Positions 10,892 to 52,490 are shown, counted from the first letter of the stretch. The stretch is 64,000 nt of DNA from Deltaproteobacteria bacterium (GCA_029261875.1 JAJDAL010000006.1:120765-184764), one strand, 5' to 3'. Program-made: numbers and translations. Notes: generated by a model not told the origin, from the sequence alone.

Positions 10892-11434
10892 ATGCGGAAC
10901 TGGTTCATCCTCTCGGTGGTTGGCCGCGATCGCCCGGGCATCGTCGCCCACCTCGCCCAACTCATTTTCGACAGCGACGCGAATCTCGAAGATTCCAGAA
11001 TGACGATTCTCGGAACCGAATTCGCCGTCATCCTGCTCTGTTCGGCCGCGGACGCCGAGAGCGGAAAGCGGATTTCCGAAGGCGCCAAGCGGCTCGGCGC
11101 CCAGCAGGAACTCACCATCGTGTTTCGTCCCCTGAAAGAAGGGCCCCGCATGCCGCCGACACCGCCGGACGCGCGCGTGTTCGAGATCGAAGCCGCGGGT
11201 GAAGACAAAGCGGGCATCGTTGCGAGCATCTGTGGCCGCTTGGCGGAACGCGAAATCAACATCCGCGAGTTGTCATCGCGAAGTCGGCCCGGTCCCAGTG
11301 GCTCGCCCCATTACGAACTTCGGGTGACGACCGAGATCCCTCCCTCCGTCGACATCGACGCCCTTCGCGCCGCACTCGAGAGCGAGGCCGATCGCCTGGT
11401 GATCGACATCTCGCTCCACGCCCTCGACAACTGA
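10892..11434 (+). CDS. Tandem ACT-domain protein (GcvR-like)
   Basis: 180 aa with two ACT-type segments: FILSVVGRDRPGIVAHLAQLIF and FEIEAAGEDKAGIVASICGRLAE. Confidence 0.75.
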   Translation: MRNWFILSVVGRDRPGIVAHLAQLIFDSDANLEDSRMTILGTEFAVILLCSAADAESGKRISEGAKRLGAQQELTIVFRPLKEGPRMPPTPPDARVFEIEAAGEDKAGIVASICGRLAEREINIRELSSRSRPGPSGSPHYELRVTTEIPPSVDIDALRAALESEADRLVIDISLHALDN

Positions 11435-11436
11435 GC

Positions 11437-12354
11437 GTGCCGGCGCCGCGCAAACCCGACTTTCTGATCATCGGCGCTCAGAAGGCCGGGACCACCTGGC
11501 TGTGGAACGTTCTCGACCAGCACCCGGAGACCGATCTACCCGAGCAGAAAGAACTGTTCTTCTTCAGCGACGCCAGCGAACACCAGCGCGGCAGCGATTG
11601 GTATTTCGAGCACTTCGCCCATGCAGCGCCCACGAAGCGAACCGGCGAAGCGAGCACGGATTATTTCTTCGACCGGGTCCTGATCGACGAAGAACGCGTG
11701 GACAGCGGATTGCCGACGATTCCGGAATTGGTCAATCGACACCTCCCCGACGTGCGCGTCCTCTTGATACTGCGCGATCCCGTACAGCGCGCGATCTCCG
11801 CCTACTACCACCACATGCGCCGCCGCCACTACGGCCCCACCACCACCCTGCGCGAGGCCGCAAGACGCTATCCGCGCTTGCGAATCGTCGATCGCGGAAG
11901 GTATGCCGCACACCTGGAACTCTGGCAGCGCATGATTCCGCGCGACCGCTTTCGCTGCTACGTCTACGAAGAAGACGTGGTGCTGCGCGAACGCGAAACC
12001 CTGAGAGACGTCTACGAATTCCTGGGCATGGACCCGGATTTCCTGCCCCAGAAAAGTGCCGCCAAGAACGAACGCTGGGGCGAGCGCCAGGTCTGGCTCA
12101 ATTATTACGGCGGGCGCTGGTTCGGCGGCACCCTGCGCCGCATCATGGCGAGCCCCGCGCGGCGCATCGTGCAGTCGATCGACCGCCGGCGCCCCCCGGC
12201 GTTGCCGGAACCCGACGTAGCCTTCCTGCGCGACCACTATCTGGCGGAAAAGCCGCGAATCGAAACGCTCCTGGGACGCAGCCTGAATTGTTGGACCTAT
12301 GGTTCCGCGGCGACGGCGAACGCGACGGACGCCTCAGTCCTTCCAGCCCACTAG
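11437..12354 (+). CDS. Sulfotransferase family protein
   Basis: 305 aa; the GTG start lies 2 nt after the upstream stop. PAPS-binding motifs IIGAQKAGTTWL (5'-PSB) and LILRDPVQRAISAYYH (3'-PB). Confidence 0.85.
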   Translation: MPAPRKPDFLIIGAQKAGTTWLWNVLDQHPETDLPEQKELFFFSDASEHQRGSDWYFEHFAHAAPTKRTGEASTDYFFDRVLIDEERVDSGLPTIPELVNRHLPDVRVLLILRDPVQRAISAYYHHMRRRHYGPTTTLREAARRYPRLRIVDRGRYAAHLELWQRMIPRDRFRCYVYEEDVVLRERETLRDVYEFLGMDPDFLPQKSAAKNERWGERQVWLNYYGGRWFGGTLRRIMASPARRIVQSIDRRRPPALPEPDVAFLRDHYLAEKPRIETLLGRSLNCWTYGSAATANATDASVLPAH

Positions 12355-42520: not shown

Positions 42521-43063
42521 TTAGGACAGCGGCGTGTAGCGGATCAAGACGCGCTCGCCGTACTTCACGCCCGCGCGCATCTTGTCGCGCCATTCGCCGA
42601 TCTCCTCCGGGTACTTGCTGTCGTACACGCCGAGTAGACGCTCGGAGACGTTCACGTCCGTCACGAGCTCCGCCTTGGCGACGAAACTCGGAGCCTTTCG
42701 AAAATCTTCGTTGCGCGATCCCAACAGCCCCTTCCAGCGCCCGTGATCGCCGACCCAGATTCGAGCGCGATCGAGCCCGCGTTTTACGCTGCGGCTCTTC
42801 CAGCGGTCGCGGCCGGTGTTGAGCACCACCGCGCCGTCGAGGAAGCCGAACCAGACCTCAGCGTGGCAGGTGCTTTCCGAACCGTCCGACTTGAGTGGCG
42901 AAACGTAGACGAAGGGGCTCTTCTCCAGTGCCGCGAGGGTTTTGGCCGGGAGTCCCTTCTCGTGATGGGCGAAGCGCCCCACCCAATCGAACGCACCCGC
43001 GGTCGAGGGCCAAAGCAAGGCTGCGACTCCCGCTTGAAGAAAATCGCGTCGCTGAAGCTTCAA
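42521..43063 (-). CDS. Tat-signal hypothetical protein
   Basis: Start moved to TTG 43063, which lies 8 nt after GGAGGA and overlaps the cysH stop (TTGA). N-terminus KLQRRDFLQAGVAALLWPSTAGA (twin-arginine motif). 180 aa. Confidence 0.6.
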   Translation of the reverse strand: MKLQRRDFLQAGVAALLWPSTAGAFDWVGRFAHHEKGLPAKTLAALEKSPFVYVSPLKSDGSESTCHAEVWFGFLDGAVVLNTGRDRWKSRSVKRGLDRARIWVGDHGRWKGLLGSRNEDFRKAPSFVAKAELVTDVNVSERLLGVYDSKYPEEIGEWRDKMRAGVKYGERVLIRYTPLS

Positions 43064-43896
43064 ATTCCCGATCCTCCGCTCTCGTCTTCCACGTGAATCC
43101 CACATTCTTTGGTTTCCGGGTTCTCCCACCACCAACGTCCTGCGCGCGGATCCTCACCGGGTTCGACCGCGCGCGAACACGGGTCGCACCCCACGGACGC
43201 GTAGCCGCGCTTGTGTAGGCGATTGGTGGGAATGTCGTTCGCGGCCACATATTGGAGGACTTGCTCGTGGGTCCAATCCGCGATGGGGTTGAACTTGACG
43301 ATGTCGCCGTGGACGTGGTCGATCTCCACCTTGCCGGTATCGGTCCGCGTCACGTTCTGATCGCGCCGCAAGCCCGACACCCACGCGTCGAGATCCGCGA
43401 GGTAACGATTCAAGGGCTCCACCTTGCGAACGCGACAGCAGAGTTTCCGGTTCGCGACGGATTCGTAAAAGAGATTCATCCCCTTCGCGTTCACCATCTC
43501 CTGGACGGCTCCCGATTCGGGGAAAATCACTTCGATGCGTTTGCCGTAGCGTTCGCGGATTCGGTCCATGAGGTCGTAGCTGGCCTGGTGGAGCCGACCC
43601 GTGTCGAGCACGAAGACCCGGGAGGTGGGCTCGATGTTGTGCAGCATGTCCAGGATCACCATGCCTTCCGGGGCACCGAAAGAGCACGAGAGCGCGAGGC
43701 GGGGGTGATAATTCTTGACTGCGAATGTCAAGATTTCTTCGGTGGTCAGGGACTCGAAGCGACCGCTCTCGATATCCGTCAACACCCTAGCTTTACTGAT
43801 GTTTTCTTCTTGGGGGGCCACTGCGCTCACGGGGTTCTCCTCGCTTCTAGGAAGCCGCGGGGAGGAAAAGGTTTCATTCCCAAGCCAGGAAGTCAA
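43060..43896 (-). CDS. cysH: Adenylyl-sulfate (APS)/PAPS reductase, thioredoxin-dependent, Fe-S type
   Basis: 278 aa from TTG 43896 (TTGA overlap with the upstream stop); an internal GTG start is possible. Motifs LSCSFGAPEGMV, KLCCRVRKVEPL, GCDPC and KECGIH. Confidence 0.85.
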   Translation of the reverse strand: MTSWLGNETFSSPRLPRSEENPVSAVAPQEENISKARVLTDIESGRFESLTTEEILTFAVKNYHPRLALSCSFGAPEGMVILDMLHNIEPTSRVFVLDTGRLHQASYDLMDRIRERYGKRIEVIFPESGAVQEMVNAKGMNLFYESVANRKLCCRVRKVEPLNRYLADLDAWVSGLRRDQNVTRTDTGKVEIDHVHGDIVKFNPIADWTHEQVLQYVAANDIPTNRLHKRGYASVGCDPCSRAVEPGEDPRAGRWWWENPETKECGIHVEDESGGSGI

Positions 43897-44198: not shown

Positions 44199-44707
44199 GG
44201 GGTGCTCCTTTGTTGTGCGAGGGGTCGAACGCCACTCGGATCGACGGCGTCCAAAAGCGCTCGAATCGAACGTCCGCGCCCCGGGTGCAGAAAATCCGCA
44301 GCCAAAGCGGCAAGCGGAACCAGAACGAACGCGCGCTCGTGACAGCGCGGGTGGGGCAGCGTCAGGGTAGGCGAGTCCAGCACGCGGTCCGCGTAGAACA
44401 ACAAGTCGAGGTCCAGGGTGCGCGCCGCGTTGGGAATGCTGCGCTCGCGCCCGTTGCCTTCCTCGATGGCCTGCAGTCGCTCGAGCAGTTCCTGCGGCGC
44501 CAGGGTCGTGTCGATCTCCGCGACCGCGTTCAGATACGGGCCTTGAGGAGGGGGCCCGATGGGATCGGTCTCGTAGAGGGGCGACAGGCAAACCTTGGCG
44601 ATCCCCGGAGTCTCGCGCAGTCCACGGCAGGCGGCGTCGAGATAACGCTGGCGATCCCCGAGGTTCGAGCCTAGGCCGATGAAGGCGCGTTCGACGCGTC
44701 GACTCAC
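44153..44707 (-). CDS. folK: 2-amino-4-hydroxy-6-hydroxymethyldihydropteridine diphosphokinase
   Basis: GTG 44707 overlaps the upstream stop (GTGA). Motifs AFIGLGSNLGDR, RTLDLDLL and LTLPHPR. The 3' end overlaps the next gene by 46 nt. Confidence 0.85.
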   Translation of the reverse strand: MSRRVERAFIGLGSNLGDRQRYLDAACRGLRETPGIAKVCLSPLYETDPIGPPPQGPYLNAVAEIDTTLAPQELLERLQAIEEGNGRERSIPNAARTLDLDLLFYADRVLDSPTLTLPHPRCHERAFVLVPLAALAADFLHPGRGRSIRALLDAVDPSGVRPLAQQRSTPWRSSPSASPPSETG

Positions 44708-45771
44708 AGGGTTTCCGCGGCTTGCACCGGCACGCCACTCTCGAGCAGCTCGTCCTCGCGCGTTGCGCGCTCGAAGGTGATGGGATCGCGCGCCACGAAC
44801 GCATCGCCGCGAACGTCGCAATCCTCCATCGCGCATTCGGCGCATTGGCGCGGTCGACAGGGGTCGAAGTGAATGATGACGTCACCGGGCAGGTTGGAGG
44901 ATTCGAGCACCACACGCTCGATCTCGTGATTGATGCGGTGAAGCCGATCCGCATCGAAATAGCGCGGCACGGACAGATGCATATCGGCGTGCTGCACGTT
45001 TCCCGAGCGCCAGGCGCGCAAGCTGTGGACGTCGATCCACCACGCGGGTCGCGCCAACTCCATGGCGTTGCTGATGCGCGTGAGTGCGGAAATGTCGGCC
45101 TCGTCCATCAAACCGCTCACCGCTTCGCGCAAGAGCTTCCAACCGGTCCGAAGAATGTTGAGTGCGACGACGATGGCGACCAGGGGATCGAGAATCATCC
45201 AACCCGTGAGCGCCACGGCACCCAGCCCGCCCAGCACGCCGACGCTCGTCACCACGTCGGTCATCAAGTGTTTGCCGTCCGCGATCAACGCCAGGGATTG
45301 CGTGCGACGCCCGACCGAGATCAGATACCCCCCCGCAGCGGCGTTGACGAGCGTAAAGACTCCCACCAGGATCAAACCCGCGTCGATGCGTTCGACGTGG
45401 GGGCCCGCGAGCAGATCCCGCACGGCTTCGAAGAAAATCAGACACGCGGCAACGGCGATCATCGCGCCTTCGACGCCGGCGGAGAAGTATTCGACTTTGC
45501 CGTGCCCGTAGGGGTGGTCCTGATCCGCCGGGCGCGACGAGACCACGAGGCTGTACAGCAGCACGGCGGCTGCGACGACGTTCACCACCGATTCCATGGC
45601 GTCGGAAAACACGGCCGAGGAGCCGGTCAAGAGATAGGTGACGAGCTTCCCGCCCAACACCAGGACGCCGGCGAGCATGGCGACGCGACCGGCCCGCAGT
45701 CGCGTCGCGCGCTCCAATGCCTCCGAATTGGCGGAGTCTTGGGCGGCTTGTTGCGTGTGTTTGATGGCCAT
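44704..45771 (-). CDS. Cation diffusion facilitator (CDF) family transporter with a Cys-rich C-terminal extension
   Basis: 355 aa. CDF blocks AVFSDAMESVVN, DQDHPYGHGKVEY and GKHLMTDVV. C-terminal tail CRPRQCAECAMEDC. Confidence 0.85.
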   Translation of the reverse strand: MAIKHTQQAAQDSANSEALERATRLRAGRVAMLAGVLVLGGKLVTYLLTGSSAVFSDAMESVVNVVAAAVLLYSLVVSSRPADQDHPYGHGKVEYFSAGVEGAMIAVAACLIFFEAVRDLLAGPHVERIDAGLILVGVFTLVNAAAGGYLISVGRRTQSLALIADGKHLMTDVVTSVGVLGGLGAVALTGWMILDPLVAIVVALNILRTGWKLLREAVSGLMDEADISALTRISNAMELARPAWWIDVHSLRAWRSGNVQHADMHLSVPRYFDADRLHRINHEIERVVLESSNLPGDVIIHFDPCRPRQCAECAMEDCDVRGDAFVARDPITFERATREDELLESGVPVQAAETL

Positions 45772-45847
45772 CCAGGCGATCTTACAGGCGCTCCGCGCCC
45801 CGCGCGATGCGCGCCTCCCGAGGCCACCGGGCGGCTACAATGGCGCC

Positions 45848-47143
45848 ATGGCGGATCCCAGGCAGAACGACGCGGAAGGGAACCAACTCCCGGCGCTCCG
45901 AACCGAAGTTCCCGGTCCGCGCTCCCGCGCCCTGGCAACGCGCCTTTCGGCGGTGGAGAGTCGCAACGTCACCTGCGCGCACCCCGAAGCGCCCATCTTT
46001 TGGGAACGCGCACGCGGGTCCAACGTGTGGGACGTCGACGGAAACCGATTCGTGGATCTGTGCGCCGCCTTCGGTGTCGCGAACACCGGTCACGCGCATC
46101 CGGAAGTCGTTGCCGCGGCCCAGCGCCAAACCGAGTGTCTCCCTCACGGCATGGGGGATGTGCATCCCTCGGGCGTCAAGGTCGAGTTGCTCGAGAAACT
46201 CGTCGACCGGTTCCCCGGCGGCGCTGACGCGCGCGCCGTCCTGGTGTCCTCGGGTTCCGATGCGGTGGAGGTCGCACTCAAGACCGCGTTACTCGCGACG
46301 GGCAAACCGGGCGTCGTCGCGTTCGAAGGCGGTTACCACGGCCTATCCCTGGGCGCTCTCGACGTCACCTGGCGCGCAGATTTTCGCGCTCCCTTCGCAG
46401 CACGCCTGCCCAACGCCACATCCTTTGCGCGCTACGGCGACATGCACGACTTCGCGCGCGTCGCGGGCGAACACGTCGGGGGAATCGGCGCCGTGATCGT
46501 AGAACCCCTTCAGGGACGCGGCGGCGAGCGTGTTCCACCGGAAGGTTTCTTGCGGGAATTGCGCGAAGCGTGCGACCGGAACGGCTGGCTCTTGATCGCC
46601 GACGAGGTCTATACGGGCTTTGGCCGCACGGGAAAGACATTCGCCTGTGAACACGAAGCCGTCGTTCCGGATCTATTGTGCTGCGGGAAGGGATTGTCCT
46701 CGGCGTTTCCCATGGCGGCCTGCATCGGGCGCAAGGAAATCATGGACGCCTGGCCCGCATCGACCGGGGAAGCGCTCCACACCCAAACCTTTCTCGGTCA
46801 CCCGGTGGGTTGTGCGGCCGCCCTCGCTTCCCTGGCCGCGATCGACAATGAAAAGCTCACCCAACGCAGTGCGGAAAATGGCGCACGCAGCTTGCAACAG
46901 CTGCGCGAACGGCTCGGCACCCACCGGAACGTCACGGACATCCGCGGACGCGGGCTCATGCTGGGGATCGAGTGCCGGGACGGAGCGATTGCGTCCCGGG
47001 CCTGCGCGCGCGCGCTTTCGCGCGGCATCATCTTGCTCCCGTCGGGCGAAGGGGGACGGGTACTCTCGCTCACTCCCCCCCTTTCCATCGACCTCGACCT
47101 GCTGCTTTGGTGCGTGGGCGAGCTCGCCCAGGCGATCCCGTGA
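45848..47143 (+). CDS. Class-III (ArgD/GabT-like) PLP aminotransferase
   Basis: ORF 45638..47143 trimmed to ATG 45848. Motifs DEVYTGFGRTG, PLP-Lys LLCCGKGLSS and EPLQGRGG. Confidence 0.85.
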   Translation: MADPRQNDAEGNQLPALRTEVPGPRSRALATRLSAVESRNVTCAHPEAPIFWERARGSNVWDVDGNRFVDLCAAFGVANTGHAHPEVVAAAQRQTECLPHGMGDVHPSGVKVELLEKLVDRFPGGADARAVLVSSGSDAVEVALKTALLATGKPGVVAFEGGYHGLSLGALDVTWRADFRAPFAARLPNATSFARYGDMHDFARVAGEHVGGIGAVIVEPLQGRGGERVPPEGFLRELREACDRNGWLLIADEVYTGFGRTGKTFACEHEAVVPDLLCCGKGLSSAFPMAACIGRKEIMDAWPASTGEALHTQTFLGHPVGCAAALASLAAIDNEKLTQRSAENGARSLQQLRERLGTHRNVTDIRGRGLMLGIECRDGAIASRACARALSRGIILLPSGEGGRVLSLTPPLSIDLDLLLWCVGELAQAIP

Positions 47144-48243
47144 GCGAAGCCCGCAACGAGCTCGATCGCGCGATGCTGGAATGGATGGCCGATGCGGCCT
47201 TCAAACCCGACGCTGCCCGCTTCGAGCGGCTGGCGCTCGACCTGTTCGCGTTTCAGTTCGAACATTGCGACATCTACCGCGCCTTCTGCGAAGGCCGGGG
47301 CCGGACGCCGGTCAGCGTGAAGAATTGGCGGGACATTCCCGCGGTCCCCACGGATGCCTTCAAGGAATACGCGTTGCGAACGTTTCCGGAATCGCGCGTT
47401 CGCCACGTCTTCCGCACCAGCGGCACCACATCGTCCCAGCGCGGCACGCTGTACCTCGATCGCCTCGATCTCTACGAAGCGTCGCTCCTACCGACCTTTC
47501 GCCACTACATGCTTCCGGACCTTCCGGAAGGCGGCCGCACGCTGATTCGCGCACTCGCCTCGGATCCCGCGGAAGCGTCGGATTCTTCGCTCTCCCACAT
47601 GTTCGGCGTCGTCGTCCAGGCGTGCGGCAGCGGCGCCTCGGGTTTCGACGTCGCGAACGGAACCCTCGATACGGAGTCTTGTGTGCATCAACTCCGGCGC
47701 GCCATCCAACGCGGCACCCCCGTTACGCTGTGCGGGCCGGCTTTCGCATTCGTCCACCTGCTCGACTCCCTCGAACACGCAGACGAACGCATCGCTCTCC
47801 CGGAGCGATCGCGGATCATGGAGACTGGCGGGTTCAAGGGCCGCTCGCGCGCCGTCGAACGCAGGGAACTCTACGCGGCGATCTCCGAGTACCTGGGCGT
47901 TCCCGAAGAACGCATCGTAAATCAATATGGAATGACGGAACTCGGCAGCCAATTCTACGACGGCGTGCTGCGCGCACCCGATGCACCTCGCCGCAAGGAA
48001 GGACCGCCCTGGGCGCGCGTTCGCGTCATCGACCCGGAAACCGCCAGCGATGCGGCGCCGGGGGAAATCGGTTTTCTGGTCGTCGTCGATCTCGCCAATA
48101 CCGGCAGCTCGATCGCAATCCAAACCGCGGATCTGGGACGTCGAGTGGGAGATGGTTTCGAAGTGCTCGGTCGATCCGAAACCGCCGATCTGCGCGGCTG
48201 CTCCATCGCCATCGACAGCCTGCTCGGCGGAAAGAATCCGTGA
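47140..48243 (+). CDS. LuxE-like acyl-protein synthetase / acyl-adenylate-forming enzyme
   Basis: GTG 47140 overlaps the upstream stop (GTGA). 367 aa. LuxE-family pattern FERLALDLFAFQFEHCDIYRAFC...WRDIPAVPTDAFK...FRTSGTTS...METGGFKG. Confidence 0.8.
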   Translation: MSEARNELDRAMLEWMADAAFKPDAARFERLALDLFAFQFEHCDIYRAFCEGRGRTPVSVKNWRDIPAVPTDAFKEYALRTFPESRVRHVFRTSGTTSSQRGTLYLDRLDLYEASLLPTFRHYMLPDLPEGGRTLIRALASDPAEASDSSLSHMFGVVVQACGSGASGFDVANGTLDTESCVHQLRRAIQRGTPVTLCGPAFAFVHLLDSLEHADERIALPERSRIMETGGFKGRSRAVERRELYAAISEYLGVPEERIVNQYGMTELGSQFYDGVLRAPDAPRRKEGPPWARVRVIDPETASDAAPGEIGFLVVVDLANTGSSIAIQTADLGRRVGDGFEVLGRSETADLRGCSIAIDSLLGGKNP

Positions 48244-49529
48244 CCCAATCCGCCGTGACCGAACGATTGCTGCAGCTCGAGGAAGCCGGGAAACGGCTGC
48301 GGGAGCGATCGGTGCGGGAAGTCGTCGCCGCCCTGGCCGCCACCCTGGACGCCTGGCGCGATCCCACTTCGGCCTGGCGCCGCAGCTTGGAAGCAGAGCT
48401 CCCCAAGGAAACGGGTTTCGCGCCGGACATGGTTCGAACGGGCATGTCGCTTGCCCTCGAGAGCTGGACATCCGACGCTTTCTTGGATTTGATCGACGAC
48501 GAATTGGGCGGGATCGAAGCACTCGAGGCCATCGAGGGCCCCACGGTCTCGGGCTATCCCACCACCGCGCTCCTGCTGGCCGGCGCGATCCCCAGCCCGA
48601 CTCTGTTGCAGATTCTCGCCCCCCTGGTGCTTCGTTCACCCGTCGCCGTGAAGACCGCGTCCCACGATTCCGTGACCGCCGACCTGGTAGCGCGATCGAT
48701 CGAGAACCAGGACCCGCAGCTGGGTGAATGCGTCGAGGTCCTGGGGTTCCCGGGAAGCAACGCGAACGCCATCAACGCACTGCTGGAAGCCCCTTGCATC
48801 GTCGCCAACGGGTCCGACGCAACGATCGAGGCCGTAGCCAAGCGCATTTTCCCCGGCCAACGCTTCATCCCCTACGGACACAAAGTCTCCGTGGGCGCCT
48901 TGGGTCCCCACGCCGTCACTTCGCCCGAATGCCAGGAATCCGCGGAAGCCCTGGCCCAGGACGTGGTGCTCTGGGATCAGCTCGGATGCCTTTCGCCGGT
49001 CGCGGTCTTCGTGTCGAGCGTGGACAAGCGCGCTCCCGAACGCTTTGCCGAGGAACTCGCCAGCGCCCTGGCGGCCCTCGAAGTTCGCTGGCCGCGCTGT
49101 CGCGTCGACGTCGCCACCGGCGAGTCCATCGTTCGCGAGCGATCCATGGCGGAAATGCGGCGCGCCCAGGGCGGGTCCGTGCGTGTGTTGGCGGATTCGG
49201 GGACGCGTTGGACCGTGGTTCTCGAAGACGACACGGAGCTTCGCGCGCAACCGCGCCACCGCTTCGTCCGCGTGCATCCGGTTGCCAGTGAATCCGTGTT
49301 GCTCGATTCGCTGGCACCACTCTCCCCGCACCTTTCTGCCGTTGCGCTCGCGGGTTTCGGCCCCAAGAGCCACGAGATCGCGCGCGCTTTGGCAGACCTC
49401 GGCGCGTCACGCATCTGCAGGCCGGGCTCCCTCCAGGCGCCACCGCTTCGTTGGCGCCGCGACAACCGCGGTGTCCTGACCCCCCTCGCGCGATTCAGCG
49501 AGCATTCCCGTGAAAGCGGGGAATCTTGA
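48240..49529 (+). CDS. LuxC-like acyl-CoA/acyl-protein reductase (aldehyde-forming)
   Basis: GTG 48240 overlaps the upstream stop (GTGA). 429 aa. LuxC-family pattern TTALLLAGAIPSPTLLQILAPLVLRSPVAVKTAS and catalytic-Cys context LWDQLGCLSP. Confidence 0.8.
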   Translation: MTQSAVTERLLQLEEAGKRLRERSVREVVAALAATLDAWRDPTSAWRRSLEAELPKETGFAPDMVRTGMSLALESWTSDAFLDLIDDELGGIEALEAIEGPTVSGYPTTALLLAGAIPSPTLLQILAPLVLRSPVAVKTASHDSVTADLVARSIENQDPQLGECVEVLGFPGSNANAINALLEAPCIVANGSDATIEAVAKRIFPGQRFIPYGHKVSVGALGPHAVTSPECQESAEALAQDVVLWDQLGCLSPVAVFVSSVDKRAPERFAEELASALAALEVRWPRCRVDVATGESIVRERSMAEMRRAQGGSVRVLADSGTRWTVVLEDDTELRAQPRHRFVRVHPVASESVLLDSLAPLSPHLSAVALAGFGPKSHEIARALADLGASRICRPGSLQAPPLRWRRDNRGVLTPLARFSEHSRESGES

Positions 49530-49563
49530 AGCCCTGGTCTTGCACCCGTTGTAGAGTGGGGGC

Positions 49564-50733
49564 ATGACGCTGGACTGGGTTATCGATGTCGATACGCATA
49601 TCACCGAGCCCGCAGACCTTTGGACCAGCCGACTCCCCGCAAAGTTTCACGATCGCGCGCCCCACATCGTCCGCAACCCGGAAACCCAATGGGACATCTG
49701 GCAGATTGGCGATGCCTCGCCCCTGGTACCCGTGGGTTTCACCGCCGTCGCGGGCTGGCCGGAGCCCTTTCCCGCAGCTCCGCGCAACATGGACGAAGTC
49801 CCGAAGGCCAGCTTCGACGCCAACGCGCGGCTCGAATACATGGACTCCCTCGGAATCTGGGCCATGGCCCTCTACCCCAACGTCGGGGGCTTCGGCAGCC
49901 AGGCCTTTCTGAACCTGAAAGATCCCGAGCTGATGCTCGCCTGCGTGCAGGCCTACAACGACTTTCTGTGTGATTGGATCGCACCGGATCCGCGCCGCTT
50001 CATCCCCATCGCCGCCATGCCCTTCTGGGATGTCGAAGCCACGCGCGCGGAGATCCAGCGCTGCGCAAAACTCGGCCACAAAGGGGTCTTGTTCACGGGC
50101 GAACCCCAGTCCCACGGCTTTCCCGTCCTCGCCAACCCCCATTGGGACCCGGTCTGGGCCACAGCTCAGGATTGTGACCTGCCCGTGAGCTTCCACATCG
50201 GCACCGGGGATTTCGACGGCGAGTTCAGTCCCGACCGAATCAGCGCATCGGGCGTCGGTGCCACCAACGCCTATGCGGCGGTTTCCCTGTTCCTGGAAAA
50301 CGGCAAACAGCTGGCGGATTTGCTGCTATCGGGCGTGCTCGCGCGTTTCCCGAAGCTGCGCGTGGTTTCCGTCGAAAGCGGCATCGGGTTCATACCCTTC
50401 ATCCTCGAAGCCTGCGATTACACCTTCGAGTATTCGAAGATCCGCCTTCAGCGGCCGGAATTCGAGATGCTTCCGTCCGAATACTTCCAGCGACAGGTCT
50501 ACGGCTGCTACTTCTTCGAGGAAGTGGCGCCCCAGCGTCTACTCGACAAGATCGGCGAGGACAACGTGTTGTTCGAAACCGACTACCCCCACCCGGTTTG
50601 CTTGTTTGGCGATGTCCGCGAACGCATCGATGCGGGGCTACGCGGCGCGAGCGAGAAAACCCGACGCAAGCTTCTGTTCGACAACGCCGCAAAACTCTAC
50701 AAGGTCGACCCACCGGACCGCCCCGCCGCGTAG
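49564..50733 (+). CDS. Amidohydrolase-2 (ACMSD-like metal-dependent hydrolase/decarboxylase) family protein
   Basis: 389 aa. VIDVDTHITEP at the N-terminus, and FETDYPHP near the C-terminus. Confidence 0.85.
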   Translation: MTLDWVIDVDTHITEPADLWTSRLPAKFHDRAPHIVRNPETQWDIWQIGDASPLVPVGFTAVAGWPEPFPAAPRNMDEVPKASFDANARLEYMDSLGIWAMALYPNVGGFGSQAFLNLKDPELMLACVQAYNDFLCDWIAPDPRRFIPIAAMPFWDVEATRAEIQRCAKLGHKGVLFTGEPQSHGFPVLANPHWDPVWATAQDCDLPVSFHIGTGDFDGEFSPDRISASGVGATNAYAAVSLFLENGKQLADLLLSGVLARFPKLRVVSVESGIGFIPFILEACDYTFEYSKIRLQRPEFEMLPSEYFQRQVYGCYFFEEVAPQRLLDKIGEDNVLFETDYPHPVCLFGDVRERIDAGLRGASEKTRRKLLFDNAAKLYKVDPPDRPAA

Positions 50734-50744
50734 CGGGGCATTCG

Positions 50745-51782
50745 TCAGGCGGCCGCGCGCGCCCCGGCGCGGACCAAGCGTTCGTGCTCGATCGCTTCAT
50801 CCACGTCCGACGTGGTGTTGTGTTCGAACTCCAGGATTCCGAGATCGGCGAAGCGCTGGCGCTGGCGGCCCGAAAGCAGACCGAGGCTCTTCACGTTGGG
50901 CACGATCTTCGAGAACAGGCGACGCCGGTACTCGATGGAGAACGGCGACGTCTCCCACGCTTGGATGCAGGCATCGGGATCCATGCCCATGTTCTCCCAG
51001 ACTTCGCGGGAATTGATGCGATCGCGCATCAGAACAGACGCTTCGTAGATGAAATCCTCGCGCTCCAGCCGTTCTCTCTCGCTCAAGTCTTTGCAATGCT
51101 CGCGAAGCGACAGCACACCGAACGCCACGTGGCGCGATTCGTCTTCCATCACCGCTGCGGTGAGGTCGCGGAGCAGCGGATTGTTCGCGGTATCGCGGAT
51201 CATGCCGAATGCCGCCAGGGCGAGGCCCTCCACGATGATCTGCATGCCGAGAAACTTCATGTCCCAGCGCGAGTCGGTCAAGATCGCGTCGAGGAGCTTC
51301 TTGAGTTCGGGATTCACGGGATATTCGTGCTGCATTTTTTCTTGTACGAAGCGGCGGTAGACCTCCACGTGGCGCGCCTCATCCATGACCTGGGTCGCGC
51401 CGTACTGTTTGGCTTCGTACCAAGGCACGGAATCGACGACCTGGGCCGTAGCGAGCAGTGCGCCTTGTTCACCGTGCAGGAACTGGCATAGCTGCCAGGT
51501 CAACATCTCGTGGCGAAGCTTCCCGATTTCTCGCGGGGACAGCGTTTGCCACAGAGGGGTGTTGAAGATCGCGATGCTGGCGTCGGGTACCAGCTCCGAA
51601 TTCGGATCGACGTCGATCGACCAATCCAGGCGCGTCGCTCCATCCCACTGATGCGCCTTGGCCTTCTCGTACAGGCGATTCAGATGCTTTCGATCCGTCG
51701 AATAGGCCCAGTTGTACGAGACATCCTGGGGCACGCGAAAGGATTCGACGGGATTCGTTTCAGGGTGAAGTTGCAAGGACAT
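50745..51782 (-). CDS. Ferritin-like di-iron carboxylate protein (putative di-iron oxygenase)
   Basis: 345 aa. Four-helix di-iron ligand pattern FLHGEQGA, VMDEARH, IIVEGLA and VMEDESRH (E, ExxH, E, ExxH). Confidence 0.8.
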   Translation of the reverse strand: MSLQLHPETNPVESFRVPQDVSYNWAYSTDRKHLNRLYEKAKAHQWDGATRLDWSIDVDPNSELVPDASIAIFNTPLWQTLSPREIGKLRHEMLTWQLCQFLHGEQGALLATAQVVDSVPWYEAKQYGATQVMDEARHVEVYRRFVQEKMQHEYPVNPELKKLLDAILTDSRWDMKFLGMQIIVEGLALAAFGMIRDTANNPLLRDLTAAVMEDESRHVAFGVLSLREHCKDLSERERLEREDFIYEASVLMRDRINSREVWENMGMDPDACIQAWETSPFSIEYRRRLFSKIVPNVKSLGLLSGRQRQRFADLGILEFEHNTTSDVDEAIEHERLVRAGARAAA

Positions 51783-51785
51783 GAT

Positions 51786-52490
51786 TTACTCCTGGGTTGT
51801 AGTTTCGGGCAGAGGACACCCGAGATAGCCGAGAAAGGCGCGCATCATTTCGCGAGCGAGATCCGCATCGGACAAGTGGCTGAACGCCTGGGCGAGTTCG
51901 TCGAACAAGACCGTGCGTTCGAGAGAACCGAAAATCAGGTGCAGCCCGAACTCCGTGGCGAGCACCGGGTCCGGGTGTGAAATCTGTTCGCGGCGATCGA
52001 TCAGCAGGACGGACAACTTGCCCGCCACGTAGCGGCTCAGGCGTTGTTCGCGTTGACCGAAGCTCGGATCCGAGCGGCCTTTCACCATGAAGGCGCGCAC
52101 GAGGCCCTTGCGGTCGCGAAAGGTTTGGATCAAGAACGGAATCACGGCGCCGAGAATGTCGACGGTACCGGCGCCTTCCCAGCGCTGGGGGTCGAGGGCC
52201 GCGTCGGCGGTCGCCGTGGCTTCTTCGTAATAGCGCTCGTAGAGGGTGTGGAGAAGCGTGTCCTTGTCGCCAAAACGGGAATAGAACGCGCCCACCGAGG
52301 ACTCGGCGCGTCGTACGATCTCCGCCACCGAAGCATCTTCGAAGCCCTTGTCCGCCACCAACGACTCGGCGGCATCGAGGATTCGGACCAGGGTTTCCTG
52401 GCTGCGCGCCTGACGGGGCGGCTTCACCCACTGCAAGGGAGCTCGCAGAGCGGGGGGAACGGCTTGATGGGTCTCGAACGGGTTACTCAT
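51786..52490 (-). CDS. TetR family transcriptional regulator
   Basis: 234 aa. TetR HTH ARSQETLVRILDAAESLVADKGFEDASVAEIVRRAESSVGAFYSRFGDKD. Its stop lies 3 nt before the di-iron gene start. Confidence 0.85.
   Translation of the reverse strand: MSNPFETHQAVPPALRAPLQWVKPPRQARSQETLVRILDAAESLVADKGFEDASVAEIVRRAESSVGAFYSRFGDKDTLLHTLYERYYEEATATADAALDPQRWEGAGTVDILGAVIPFLIQTFRDRKGLVRAFMVKGRSDPSFGQREQRLSRYVAGKLSVLLIDRREQISHPDPVLATEFGLHLIFGSLERTVLFDELAQAFSHLSDADLAREMMRAFLGYLGCPLPETTTQE

Follow-up and report, generated by a model that had tools for sequence, protein, structure and literature searches.

A LuxE-like/LuxC-like enzyme pair joined to a class-III aminotransferase: a candidate carboxylate-to-amine module in uncultured Myxococcota

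The subject of this analysis is a trio of adjacent genes in a 64,000-nt stretch of DNA from a Deltaproteobacteria bacterium (GCA_029261875.1, JAJDAL010000006.1:120765-184764; G+C content 63.7%), which is referred to below as the window and whose first nucleotide is position 1. The trio encodes a class-III pyridoxal phosphate (PLP)-dependent aminotransferase (AT), a LuxE-like protein and a LuxC-like protein with the aldehyde dehydrogenase (ALDH) fold (Table 1). Together they probably constitute a self-contained module, driven by ATP and NAD(P)H, that would convert a carboxylate via an aldehyde into a primary amine. More tentatively, and with somewhat less than even confidence, we propose that the trio is a dedicated carboxylate-amination machine, whose product, a primary amine, would be a core metabolite throughout a clade of uncultured Myxococcota, and in whose AT the substrate-binding arginine would have been relocated from the position of Arg398 to that of Glu211 of the Escherichia coli GabT protein.

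The three genes are joined by two identical stop/start overlaps, GTGA, at 47140-47143 (AT/LuxE) and 48240-48243 (LuxE/LuxC), which can be read directly in the sequence, as stated in a preliminary description of the window. The motifs quoted there, FRTSGTTS (residues 91–98) and METGGFKG (227–234) in the LuxE-like protein and DQLGCLSP (246–253) in the LuxC-like protein, are present as well. Hundreds of proteins, nearly all of them metagenomic, are related to the LuxC-like protein at about 50% identity. A scan of the GTDB species representatives (one genome per species) yielded 248 stretches with relatives, of which the best 80 were used for the comparison of loci in the main clade, with genes placed by tblastn searches with the window proteins. 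All 80 come from metagenome-assembled genomes, mostly labelled Myxococcota or Deltaproteobacteria. In all 68 loci with 2.7 kb or more of upstream sequence, AT, LuxE and LuxC lie on one strand and are ordered as in the window, an agreement far greater than chance would produce; their identities to the window proteins are 62–69% (AT), 50–63% (LuxE) and 41–54% (LuxC). Of 73 loci, 63 retain the 4-nt overlap between AT and LuxE, and such an overlap is also the commonest LuxE/LuxC spacing (58 loci). The flanks vary: a gene for a cation diffusion facilitator (CDF) intervenes between folK and AT in some genomes only, and the stretch from LuxC to the Rrf2 and suf genes ranges from 1.3 to 10 kb.

Table 1. 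Position of the trio, its presumed promoter element and the codons of its key residues in the window.
Feature	Position	Strand	Length	Remarks
TACAAT, -10-like hexamer 6 nt before the AT ATG (leaderless-type start)	45836..45841	+		read from the sequence
AT, class-III (fold-type I) PLP aminotransferase	45848..47143	+	431 aa	ATG start; PF00202 match
AT Leu166 codon	46343-46345	+		
AT Arg224 codon	46517-46519	+		
AT Asp252 codon	46601-46603	+		
AT Lys281 codon	46688-46690	+		
AT Ser407 codon	47066-47068	+		
LuxE-like acyl-protein synthetase (putative adenylating, self-acylating)	47140..48243	+	367 aa	GTG start; PF04443
LuxE-like Lys233 codon	47836-47838	+		alignment to 7xc6_E
LuxE-like Arg345 codon	48172-48174	+		alignment to 7xc6_E
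LuxE-like Cys354 codon	48199-48201	+		alignment to 7xc6_E
LuxC-like ALDH-fold acyl-thioester reductase (putative, aldehyde-forming)	48240..49529	+	429 aa	GTG start; PF05893
LuxC-like Cys250 codon (catalytic)	48987-48989	+		alignment to P. phosphoreum LuxC

The association of the three genes extends beyond the main clade. When AT was searched against 1.84 billion representative proteins, the main clade collapsed to a single representative (66% identity), followed by proteins at 37–55% identity, among which natural fusions were found: an 818-aa protein with LuxC at the N-terminus and AT at the C-terminus, preceded by a LuxE gene (P0131, locus L087), an 860-aa AT::LuxE fusion followed by LuxC with a 4-nt overlap and located between bipA and mutS2 (P0148, L091/L092), and another AT::LuxE fusion (P0183). 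The same bipA-mutS2 slot is occupied by an unfused AT-LuxE-LuxC trio in related contigs (L098/L099) and is thus a second, unrelated chromosomal context for the trio. Synteny of the triad, proposed at the outset as a check of the cassette, is therefore found in all 68 main-clade loci with sufficient upstream sequence and recurs outside the clade, and we conclude that the AT-LuxE-LuxC trio is a real, selected unit. The initial view of the genes as one functional cassette, whose simplest chemistry would lead from an acid via an aldehyde to an amine, agrees with the conserved order, the invariant catalytic residues described below and the fusions.

The LuxE/LuxC pair also occurs with other partners. 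A metagenome scan with the LuxE alignment (A2) gave 565 relatives, and in the best 80 loci compared an AT gene lies beside LuxE/LuxC in 34 (counting the main clade and the mutS2 lineage, together with three loci where the order is LuxE-LuxC-AT and five whose AT is more distant), while about 15 loci with sufficient flanking DNA have no AT. Where AT is absent, the partners include a short-chain dehydrogenase/reductase (SDR; L154), a zinc-type alcohol dehydrogenase (Zn-ADH) fused to LuxE, an ABC-2 exporter and a DUF255 thioredoxin-like protein. In the Zn-ADH case (L173, 2915-5908) the dehydrogenase forms the N-terminus of a 997-aa LuxE protein, which is followed by LuxC, and this arrangement corresponds to the AT::LuxE fusion, with an alcohol as the presumed product. 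Among cultured organisms, the nearest relatives of the LuxE-like protein (34–43% identity) are encoded on replicons and plasmids of Pantoea dispersa, Azospirillum, Priestia megaterium and Lactiplantibacillus, with LuxE-like, LuxC-like and SDR genes in P. dispersa pESL4.1 (L093), Azospirillum lipoferum 4B (L094), P. megaterium (L095) and Lactiplantibacillus plantarum (L096). These SDR-type modules share with the trio the DQxGC(L/Y)SP motif, the GR..(K/R)GCS motif at the C-terminus and the tight coupling of the pair (a 4-nt overlap or a gap of 12–14 nt) followed by an aldehyde-consuming enzyme; they differ in that the third enzyme is an SDR reductase, so that the presumed product is an alcohol, and in that their LuxC proteins (482–493 aa) are only 25–28% identical. 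RefSeq labels their members 'long-chain fatty acid--CoA ligase' and 'acyl-CoA reductase' and attaches the GO (Gene Ontology) term bioluminescence to them; literature searches found no paper describing them. The replacement of AT by an SDR or a Zn-ADH in the sister pairs suggests that the LuxE/LuxC pair is a modular aldehyde generator, i.e. it looks like a modular carboxylate reductase, in which the third enzyme would decide the fate of the aldehyde, with the SDR or alcohol dehydrogenase leading to an alcohol and AT to an amine.

The LuxE-like protein is assigned to its family by a Pfam match (PF04443, 71.3 bits against a cut-off of 24.9, residues 28–359). Its sole match in the PDB is the LuxE protein 7xc6_E (E-value 7e-21), and in the alignment Lys233, Arg345 and Cys354 correspond to Lys238, Arg355 and Cys364, the cysteine being embedded in the local context ADLRGCSIA. 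In Photobacterium LuxE, Lys238 and Arg355 carry out the adenylation and Cys364, located in the flexible C-terminal motif TRxxKGCxLS, carries the acyl group (PMC9157457). The three residues are invariant in 74 LuxE-like orthologues and in eight other lineages. The LuxC-like protein matches PF05893 (178 bits against a cut-off of 21), and its predicted structure (AlphaFold2 (AF2), mean confidence score pLDDT 91.6) finds LuxC 7xc6_A as the best PDB match (template-modelling (TM) score 0.80, root-mean-square deviation 3.3 Å, E-value 5e-20), with generic ALDHs fitting less well (TM 0.64–0.72). Its Cys250 (WDQLGCLSP) aligns with the cysteine of the DQQACFS motif of P. phosphoreum LuxC, where Cys296 (Cys286 in the older numbering) accepts the acyl group before NADPH reduction (PMC9157457). 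Cys250 is invariant in 82 LuxC-like orthologues and retained in every other lineage examined. Thus the catalytic cysteines and lysines, whose absence from an alignment had been named as a potential objection, are all present and invariant across 73–82 orthologues that are 41–69% identical to the window proteins.

As to bioluminescence, Pfam scans of about 60 open reading frames covering the 64 kb detected no Bac_luciferase domain (LuxA/B, PF00296), no LuxD acyltransferase and no carrier-protein domain, and the neighbours of the trio that could be identified in the related loci examined include no luciferase or LuxD. The earlier statements that luxA, luxB and luxD are missing from the window and that the genes do not serve bioluminescence are hence in accord with these scans. 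Moreover, the LuxE-like and LuxC-like proteins score far below the cut-offs of the NCBIfam equivalogs of the luminescence proteins (NF052244, 79.5 bits against 550, and NF052251, 55 bits against 750, respectively), which identifies them as family members and not as orthologues.

The course of the reaction and its direction can be predicted by analogy to the fatty acid reductase, for which the acyl relay from LuxE to LuxC has been described together with the roles of the residues (PMC9157457; PMC12041015). The LuxE-like enzyme would use Lys233 and Arg345 to activate a free carboxylic acid with ATP to an acyl-adenylate, and the acyl group would then be passed to Cys354 in the flexible C-terminal tail of the same protein, both steps being suggested by the conservation of these residues. 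The tail would hand the acyl group over to Cys250 of the LuxC-like reductase, which would reduce the thioester with NAD(P)H and release the aldehyde; finally, AT would turn the aldehyde into a primary amine with the aid of PLP bound to Lys281. All three proteins are expected to be made from one leaderless transcript, with their translation coupled through the 4-nt overlaps.

Does the module reduce long-chain fatty acids, like LuxE and LuxC of Vibrio, and would its product then be a fatty or alkyl amine or an amino-lipid precursor, as the preliminary description had suggested? The membership in the LuxE and LuxC families speaks for this possibility, and so does the presence, after LuxC in about 27 loci, of a gene for a B12 radical SAM protein whose type is frequently associated with lipid modification. 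The AT pocket, which has Leu166 and Phe75 instead of a carboxylate-binding arginine, and the local similarity of AT to YgjG and PigE, both of which act on carboxylate-free aldehydes, would fit as well. Luminescence LuxC possesses a long, hydrophobic, L-shaped cleft for the C14 chain (PMC9157457); the sequence alignment between the LuxC-like protein and luminescence LuxC is weak beyond residue 275, so that the residues of the cleft could not be mapped. On the other hand, the scores of both proteins on the luminescence equivalogs are very low, luminescence LuxC is longer than the LuxC-like protein by about 50 residues, and the neighbourhood contains no conserved luxD, carrier protein or lipid gene. 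Furthermore, the SDR-type modules of the nearest cultured relatives are often accompanied by an SsuA-family ABC (ATP-binding cassette) importer or an NCS2 xanthine-permease-like carrier, i.e. by importers of small polar solutes, which point to small polar acids as substrates in that subfamily. The suggestion of a fatty product is thus not borne out by these relatives, and we regard it as unlikely, though it deserves to be kept in mind. Sulfoacetate (leading to taurine) and pyrimidine carboxylates, which came to mind as substrates in view of the SsuA-like and NCS2 transporters, were set aside as purely speculative, there being no transporter in the AT-type modules. Also the LuxC/LuxE homologues of the flagellin glycosylation islands were rejected as a parallel, since their context is different and includes genes for an acyl carrier protein (ACP) and FabG.

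AT is a member of the Aminotran_3 family (PF00202, 325 bits), and its model (AF2, pLDDT 92.3) fits best to actinobacterial GabT (TM 0.88–0.91, 34–36% identity). Lys281, which would form the Schiff base, and Asp252, the partner of the pyridine nitrogen, are invariant in 73 orthologues and in a 32-sequence alignment (A3). It reaches none of the NCBIfam cut-offs: the best score was obtained for GabT (PRK06058, 294 against 639), and all equivalogs remain below half of their cut-offs. In E. coli GabT (1SF2/1SFF in the PDB), Arg141 binds the distal carboxylate of the substrate or of glutamate, Glu211 serves as a switch, and Arg398, which it touches in the GabT structures, binds the alpha-carboxylate. 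Mapping of the AT residues against GabT and PuuE (in E. coli GabT numbering) revealed that the counterpart of Arg141 is Leu166 (leucine in 71 of 73 orthologues), that of Glu211 is Arg224 (arginine in all 73, within the motif EPxQGRGG), and that of Arg398 is Ser407 (serine, alanine or glycine in the 73 orthologues, never arginine). AT therefore lacks both canonical carboxylate-binding arginines, and an invariant arginine replaces the switch glutamate. Among the 138 AT representatives that could be aligned at all three signature positions, 117 combine Arg224 with a residue other than arginine at 407, and most of these also have Leu166; nine show the canonical Glu/Arg pair, accompanied by arginine or lysine at 166, and only three have both arginines. 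Such covariation of positions 224 and 407 suggests that the carboxylate-binding arginine has moved. Since Arg224 occupies the position of Glu211, which in GabT contacts Arg398, it is well placed for the alpha-carboxylate of the amino donor, and by analogy it probably takes over its binding. We found no solved structure with the Arg224 (QGRGG) signature, and on the alignments the Leu166/Arg224/Ser407 signature defines a large subfamily of aminotransferases.

With both carboxylate-binding arginines gone, the aldehyde most likely carries no distal carboxylate, i.e. it would be neutral, hydrophobic or cationic, and the pocket argues against GABA, ornithine, glutamate semialdehyde or aspartate semialdehyde as the substrate. 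Around Leu166, AT most resembles PigE and the putrescine aminotransferase YgjG (HGKSLGAL); in the pocket, a lysine and a phenylalanine of the latter correspond to Leu166 and Phe75 of AT. The designation of AT as ArgD/GabT-like, used at first, is consequently appropriate for the fold and misleading for the active site, in which the two substrate-binding arginines are missing and the switch glutamate is an arginine. These features bear also on another interpretation, according to which the trio is a non-orthologous bypass of the ArgB-ArgC-ArgD steps or of the corresponding steps of lysine or diaminobutyrate synthesis, and glutamate, aspartate, aminoadipate or succinate would be converted via the semialdehyde to ornithine, lysine, diaminobutyrate or GABA. 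The chemical logic would be the same, the AT backbone is nearest to GabT and ArgD/LysJ, and the trio behaves as a vertically inherited core operon amid housekeeping genes (folK, a cysH-like gene and suf). Enzymes for such substrates, however, use the equivalent of Arg141 (or Arg180) together with the Glu211-Arg398 pair, where AT has leucine, arginine and serine, alanine or glycine, and no NCBIfam cut-off is approached for GabT, ArgD, LysJ, ornithine aminotransferase or diaminobutyrate aminotransferase; we consider this bypass improbable.

Several observations weigh against the carboxylate-to-amine module. AT has lost the equivalent of Arg398, an arginine regarded as universal for the binding of keto-acids, and few functional transaminases would be expected to do without it. 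Some proteins of the AT subfamily occur by themselves, with no LuxE/LuxC partner, e.g. in the cultured Persicimonas caeni, so that AT is not obligatorily tied to LuxE/LuxC as its source of aldehyde. The wider neighbourhood of the trio is syntenic within the main clade as well, hence part of the conservation observed there reflects common descent and not selection. The identity of LuxC between lineages is low (25–31%), and literature searches found no paper on the AT-LuxE-LuxC trio or the QGRGG motif. The first two observations would also suit a different chemistry, in which the PLP enzyme is a racemase or epimerase, or in which it deaminates an amine and LuxC and LuxE operate in reverse as a catabolic route. 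Indeed, class-III racemases and epimerases are found among the close structural neighbours of AT. Yet the aligned archaeal class-III racemase retains an acidic residue and an arginine (QGDAG, GNVLRIAPPL) and does not share the AT signature, and the fusions of AT to LuxC and to LuxE argue for a direct hand-over of the LuxC product. As for the reversed route, the SDR and alcohol dehydrogenase partners of the sister modules indicate that the pair operates towards the aldehyde, and reversal of an ATP-consuming adenylation is unlikely by established enzymology. Both variants of this alternative therefore appear very improbable, and the formation of an amine from a carboxylate is retained as the preferred reading of the trio.

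Thioester reduction followed by transamination is well known from natural-product pathways, e.g. from PigE and TamH (fused reductase-aminotransferases) and from polyketide alkaloids (a reductase domain with an omega-transaminase), and from engineered cascades of carboxylic acid reductases (CARs) and transaminases. In the synthesis of the tambjamine BE-18591 it is represented by TabE, a reductase of the ALDH/LuxC superfamily, and TabA, an omega-transaminase (10.1101/2025.08.11.669332). All these systems share with the proposed module the logic of converting an activated acyl group via an aldehyde into a primary amine, and also the fusion or adjacency of a reductase and a class-III aminotransferase. 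AT matches the PigE model as well, with 256 bits against a cut-off of 850. Unlike systems based on polyketide synthases (PKS) or non-ribosomal peptide synthetases (NRPS), the trio has no PKS, NRPS, ACP or phosphopantetheine carrier, and the acid is proposed to be activated on the LuxE-type enzyme's own cysteine; in agreement with this, Pfam detected neither PP-binding nor NAD_binding_4 domains in the trio proteins or their neighbours, the reductase having the ALDH fold instead. The trio is also a stand-alone three-gene operon amid housekeeping genes and does not belong to a biosynthetic cluster, and its AT has a different active-site signature. The closest parallel for the other two proteins is LuxC-LuxE of Photobacterium phosphoreum (7XC6), likewise a two-protein carboxylate reductase encoded by adjacent genes, with a LuxE that has no ANL C-terminal subdomain and possesses the Lys/Arg pair and the cysteine of the C-terminal GCS, and with an ALDH-fold LuxC that has a single catalytic cysteine. 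The trio differs from it in the low sequence identity (only 18–25%), in the absence of luxA, luxB, luxD and luxG, and in having AT as a partner. Finally, AT shares with GabT/PuuE, ArgD/LysJ and YgjG the fold, the PLP-binding lysine and aspartate and the dimer-type architecture (33–36% identity, TM 0.87–0.91), and with YgjG also the HG(L/K)SLGAL and FG motifs; it differs from all of them in the replacement of Arg141 by leucine, of Glu211 by arginine and of Arg398 by serine, alanine or glycine. What is new is the combination: a carrier-free two-protein reductase of the LuxE/LuxC type, an aminotransferase whose active site is rearranged, and an independent operon that is inherited vertically in an uncultured clade and also exists in naturally fused forms.

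Amines made from carboxylic acids are much wanted and are now obtained with the use of large CAR enzymes and omega-transaminases. A compact natural version with three genes and ready-made fusions would supply parts for this purpose and perhaps also substrate channelling, and the relocated arginine, if true, would represent a new mode of substrate recognition for class-III transaminases. The retention of the operon in about 250 species-level genomes of uncultured Myxococcota implies that the predicted amine is a metabolite of some importance to these sediment and soil bacteria. The labels "bioluminescence" and "long-chain fatty acid-CoA ligase", attached to such genes in public databases, are very likely wrong.

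The AT start codon is preceded by the hexamer TACAAT and then by GGCGCC, with no Shine-Dalgarno-like motif. A TANNNT hexamer ends 6–9 nt before the predicted AT start in 59 of 71 orthologues (against a background of 0.06 hits per offset), the commonest versions being TACAAT (20 cases) and TACACT (16), and a Shine-Dalgarno-like motif is found upstream of AT in none of the 71. Most of the 12 orthologues without the hexamer resemble mispredicted starts. Lacking a -35 match, the AT promoter was not picked up by a consensus promoter scan. The comparison thus lends strong, though indirect, support to the leaderless start that had been suggested from the window and to a leaderless transcript. The same layout is seen at other genes of the window, with TAAGAT before the CDF gene, TAGAAT before a molybdopterin oxidoreductase gene (25721, +), TAGACT before a GH31 glycosidase gene (8202, +) and a TANNNT hexamer before a cupin gene (383-709, -), in each case 6–8 nt from the start codon; together with the amidohydrolase gene discussed below, these cases indicate that it is a trait of the genome and is not specific to the cassette, and leaderless-type starts seem to be common in this genome. 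The public protein collection contains the proteins of the three downstream genes but no AT with its start at 45848, which suggests that the deposited gene call uses another start codon. There are six in-frame alternative starts upstream (45638-45847), all within the divergent CDF gene.

Upstream of AT, on the opposite strand, lie the CDF cation-efflux gene (44704-45771, -), folK (44255-44698; TIGR01498, 142 bits), a small gene of the Thiamine_BP family and a PAPS (phosphoadenosine phosphosulfate)-reductase-like gene. On the downstream side the trio is followed by an amidohydrolase gene (+), a gene for an AurF-like di-iron protein (-), a TetR regulator gene (-) and then Rrf2 and sufBCDS. The Amidohydro_2 gene starts at 49564 (+), only 34 nt after the stop codon of LuxC and on the same strand, the 345-aa AurF-like oxygenase could act on an amine, and the TetR gene is adjacent, which raises the question of whether the cassette is a part of a larger specialised-metabolite cluster. 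However, the three genes adjoin the trio only in this genome; none of them is found beside it in the 80 loci compared, where the slot holds other genes or nothing. The amidohydrolase gene has its own -10-like hexamer, TAGAGT, 6 nt before the ATG (49552-49566, +) and is therefore probably a separate transcription unit, and the genes for the AurF-like protein and TetR run in the opposite direction, the latter with a near-consensus promoter of its own (TTGACA-16-TAGAAT). Hence the spacing of the amidohydrolase gene given in the preliminary description is correct, its membership in the unit is not upheld, and a larger cluster appears extremely improbable. The three genes were discarded as parts of the pathway, not being conserved with the trio; possibly they make up a separate accessory unit (49564-52490), placed in the variable slot between LuxC and Rrf2-suf.

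A different gene occurs in this slot in about 27 other loci, approximately a third of the clade: it encodes a B12-binding radical SAM protein (DUF4070, 522 aa; e.g. L003, 11354-12922), is located 10–120 nt downstream of LuxC on the same strand, and is absent from the window. Its conservation (68–78% identity) exceeds that of the trio itself, and none of the specific NCBIfam families fits it. Scattered over the window are also sulfur-related genes, namely those for a TauE/SafE sulfite exporter (667-1158), a sulfotransferase (11203-12354) and the PAPS-reductase-like protein (43060-43896); no link between them and the trio was established.

On the other side of AT, folK is divergent from it in nearly the whole main clade and is missing from the second (bipA-mutS2) lineage, so that its adjacency, considered as a hint at pterin or p-aminobenzoate metabolism, was treated as inherited synteny. 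In the window the CDF gene sits between folK and AT, leaving a spacer at 45772-45847. In many orthologues (e.g. L021, L025 and L077) only 25–60 nt separate the start of AT from that of folK, which is oriented the other way, and the DNA between them reads (A)GTCTACAGCTACAAT. This DNA looks like a pair of back-to-back -10-like boxes, one on the minus strand (TAGACT, TAGAAT or TAAGAT) and one on the plus strand (TACAAT), and would, if they are real, represent a very compact divergent pair of leaderless promoters. Another domain arrangement was observed in a protein of 989 aa (P0273), in which cyclic-nucleotide-binding and aldehyde dehydrogenase domains are fused to a class-III aminotransferase domain with the canonical Lys/Glu/Arg residues.

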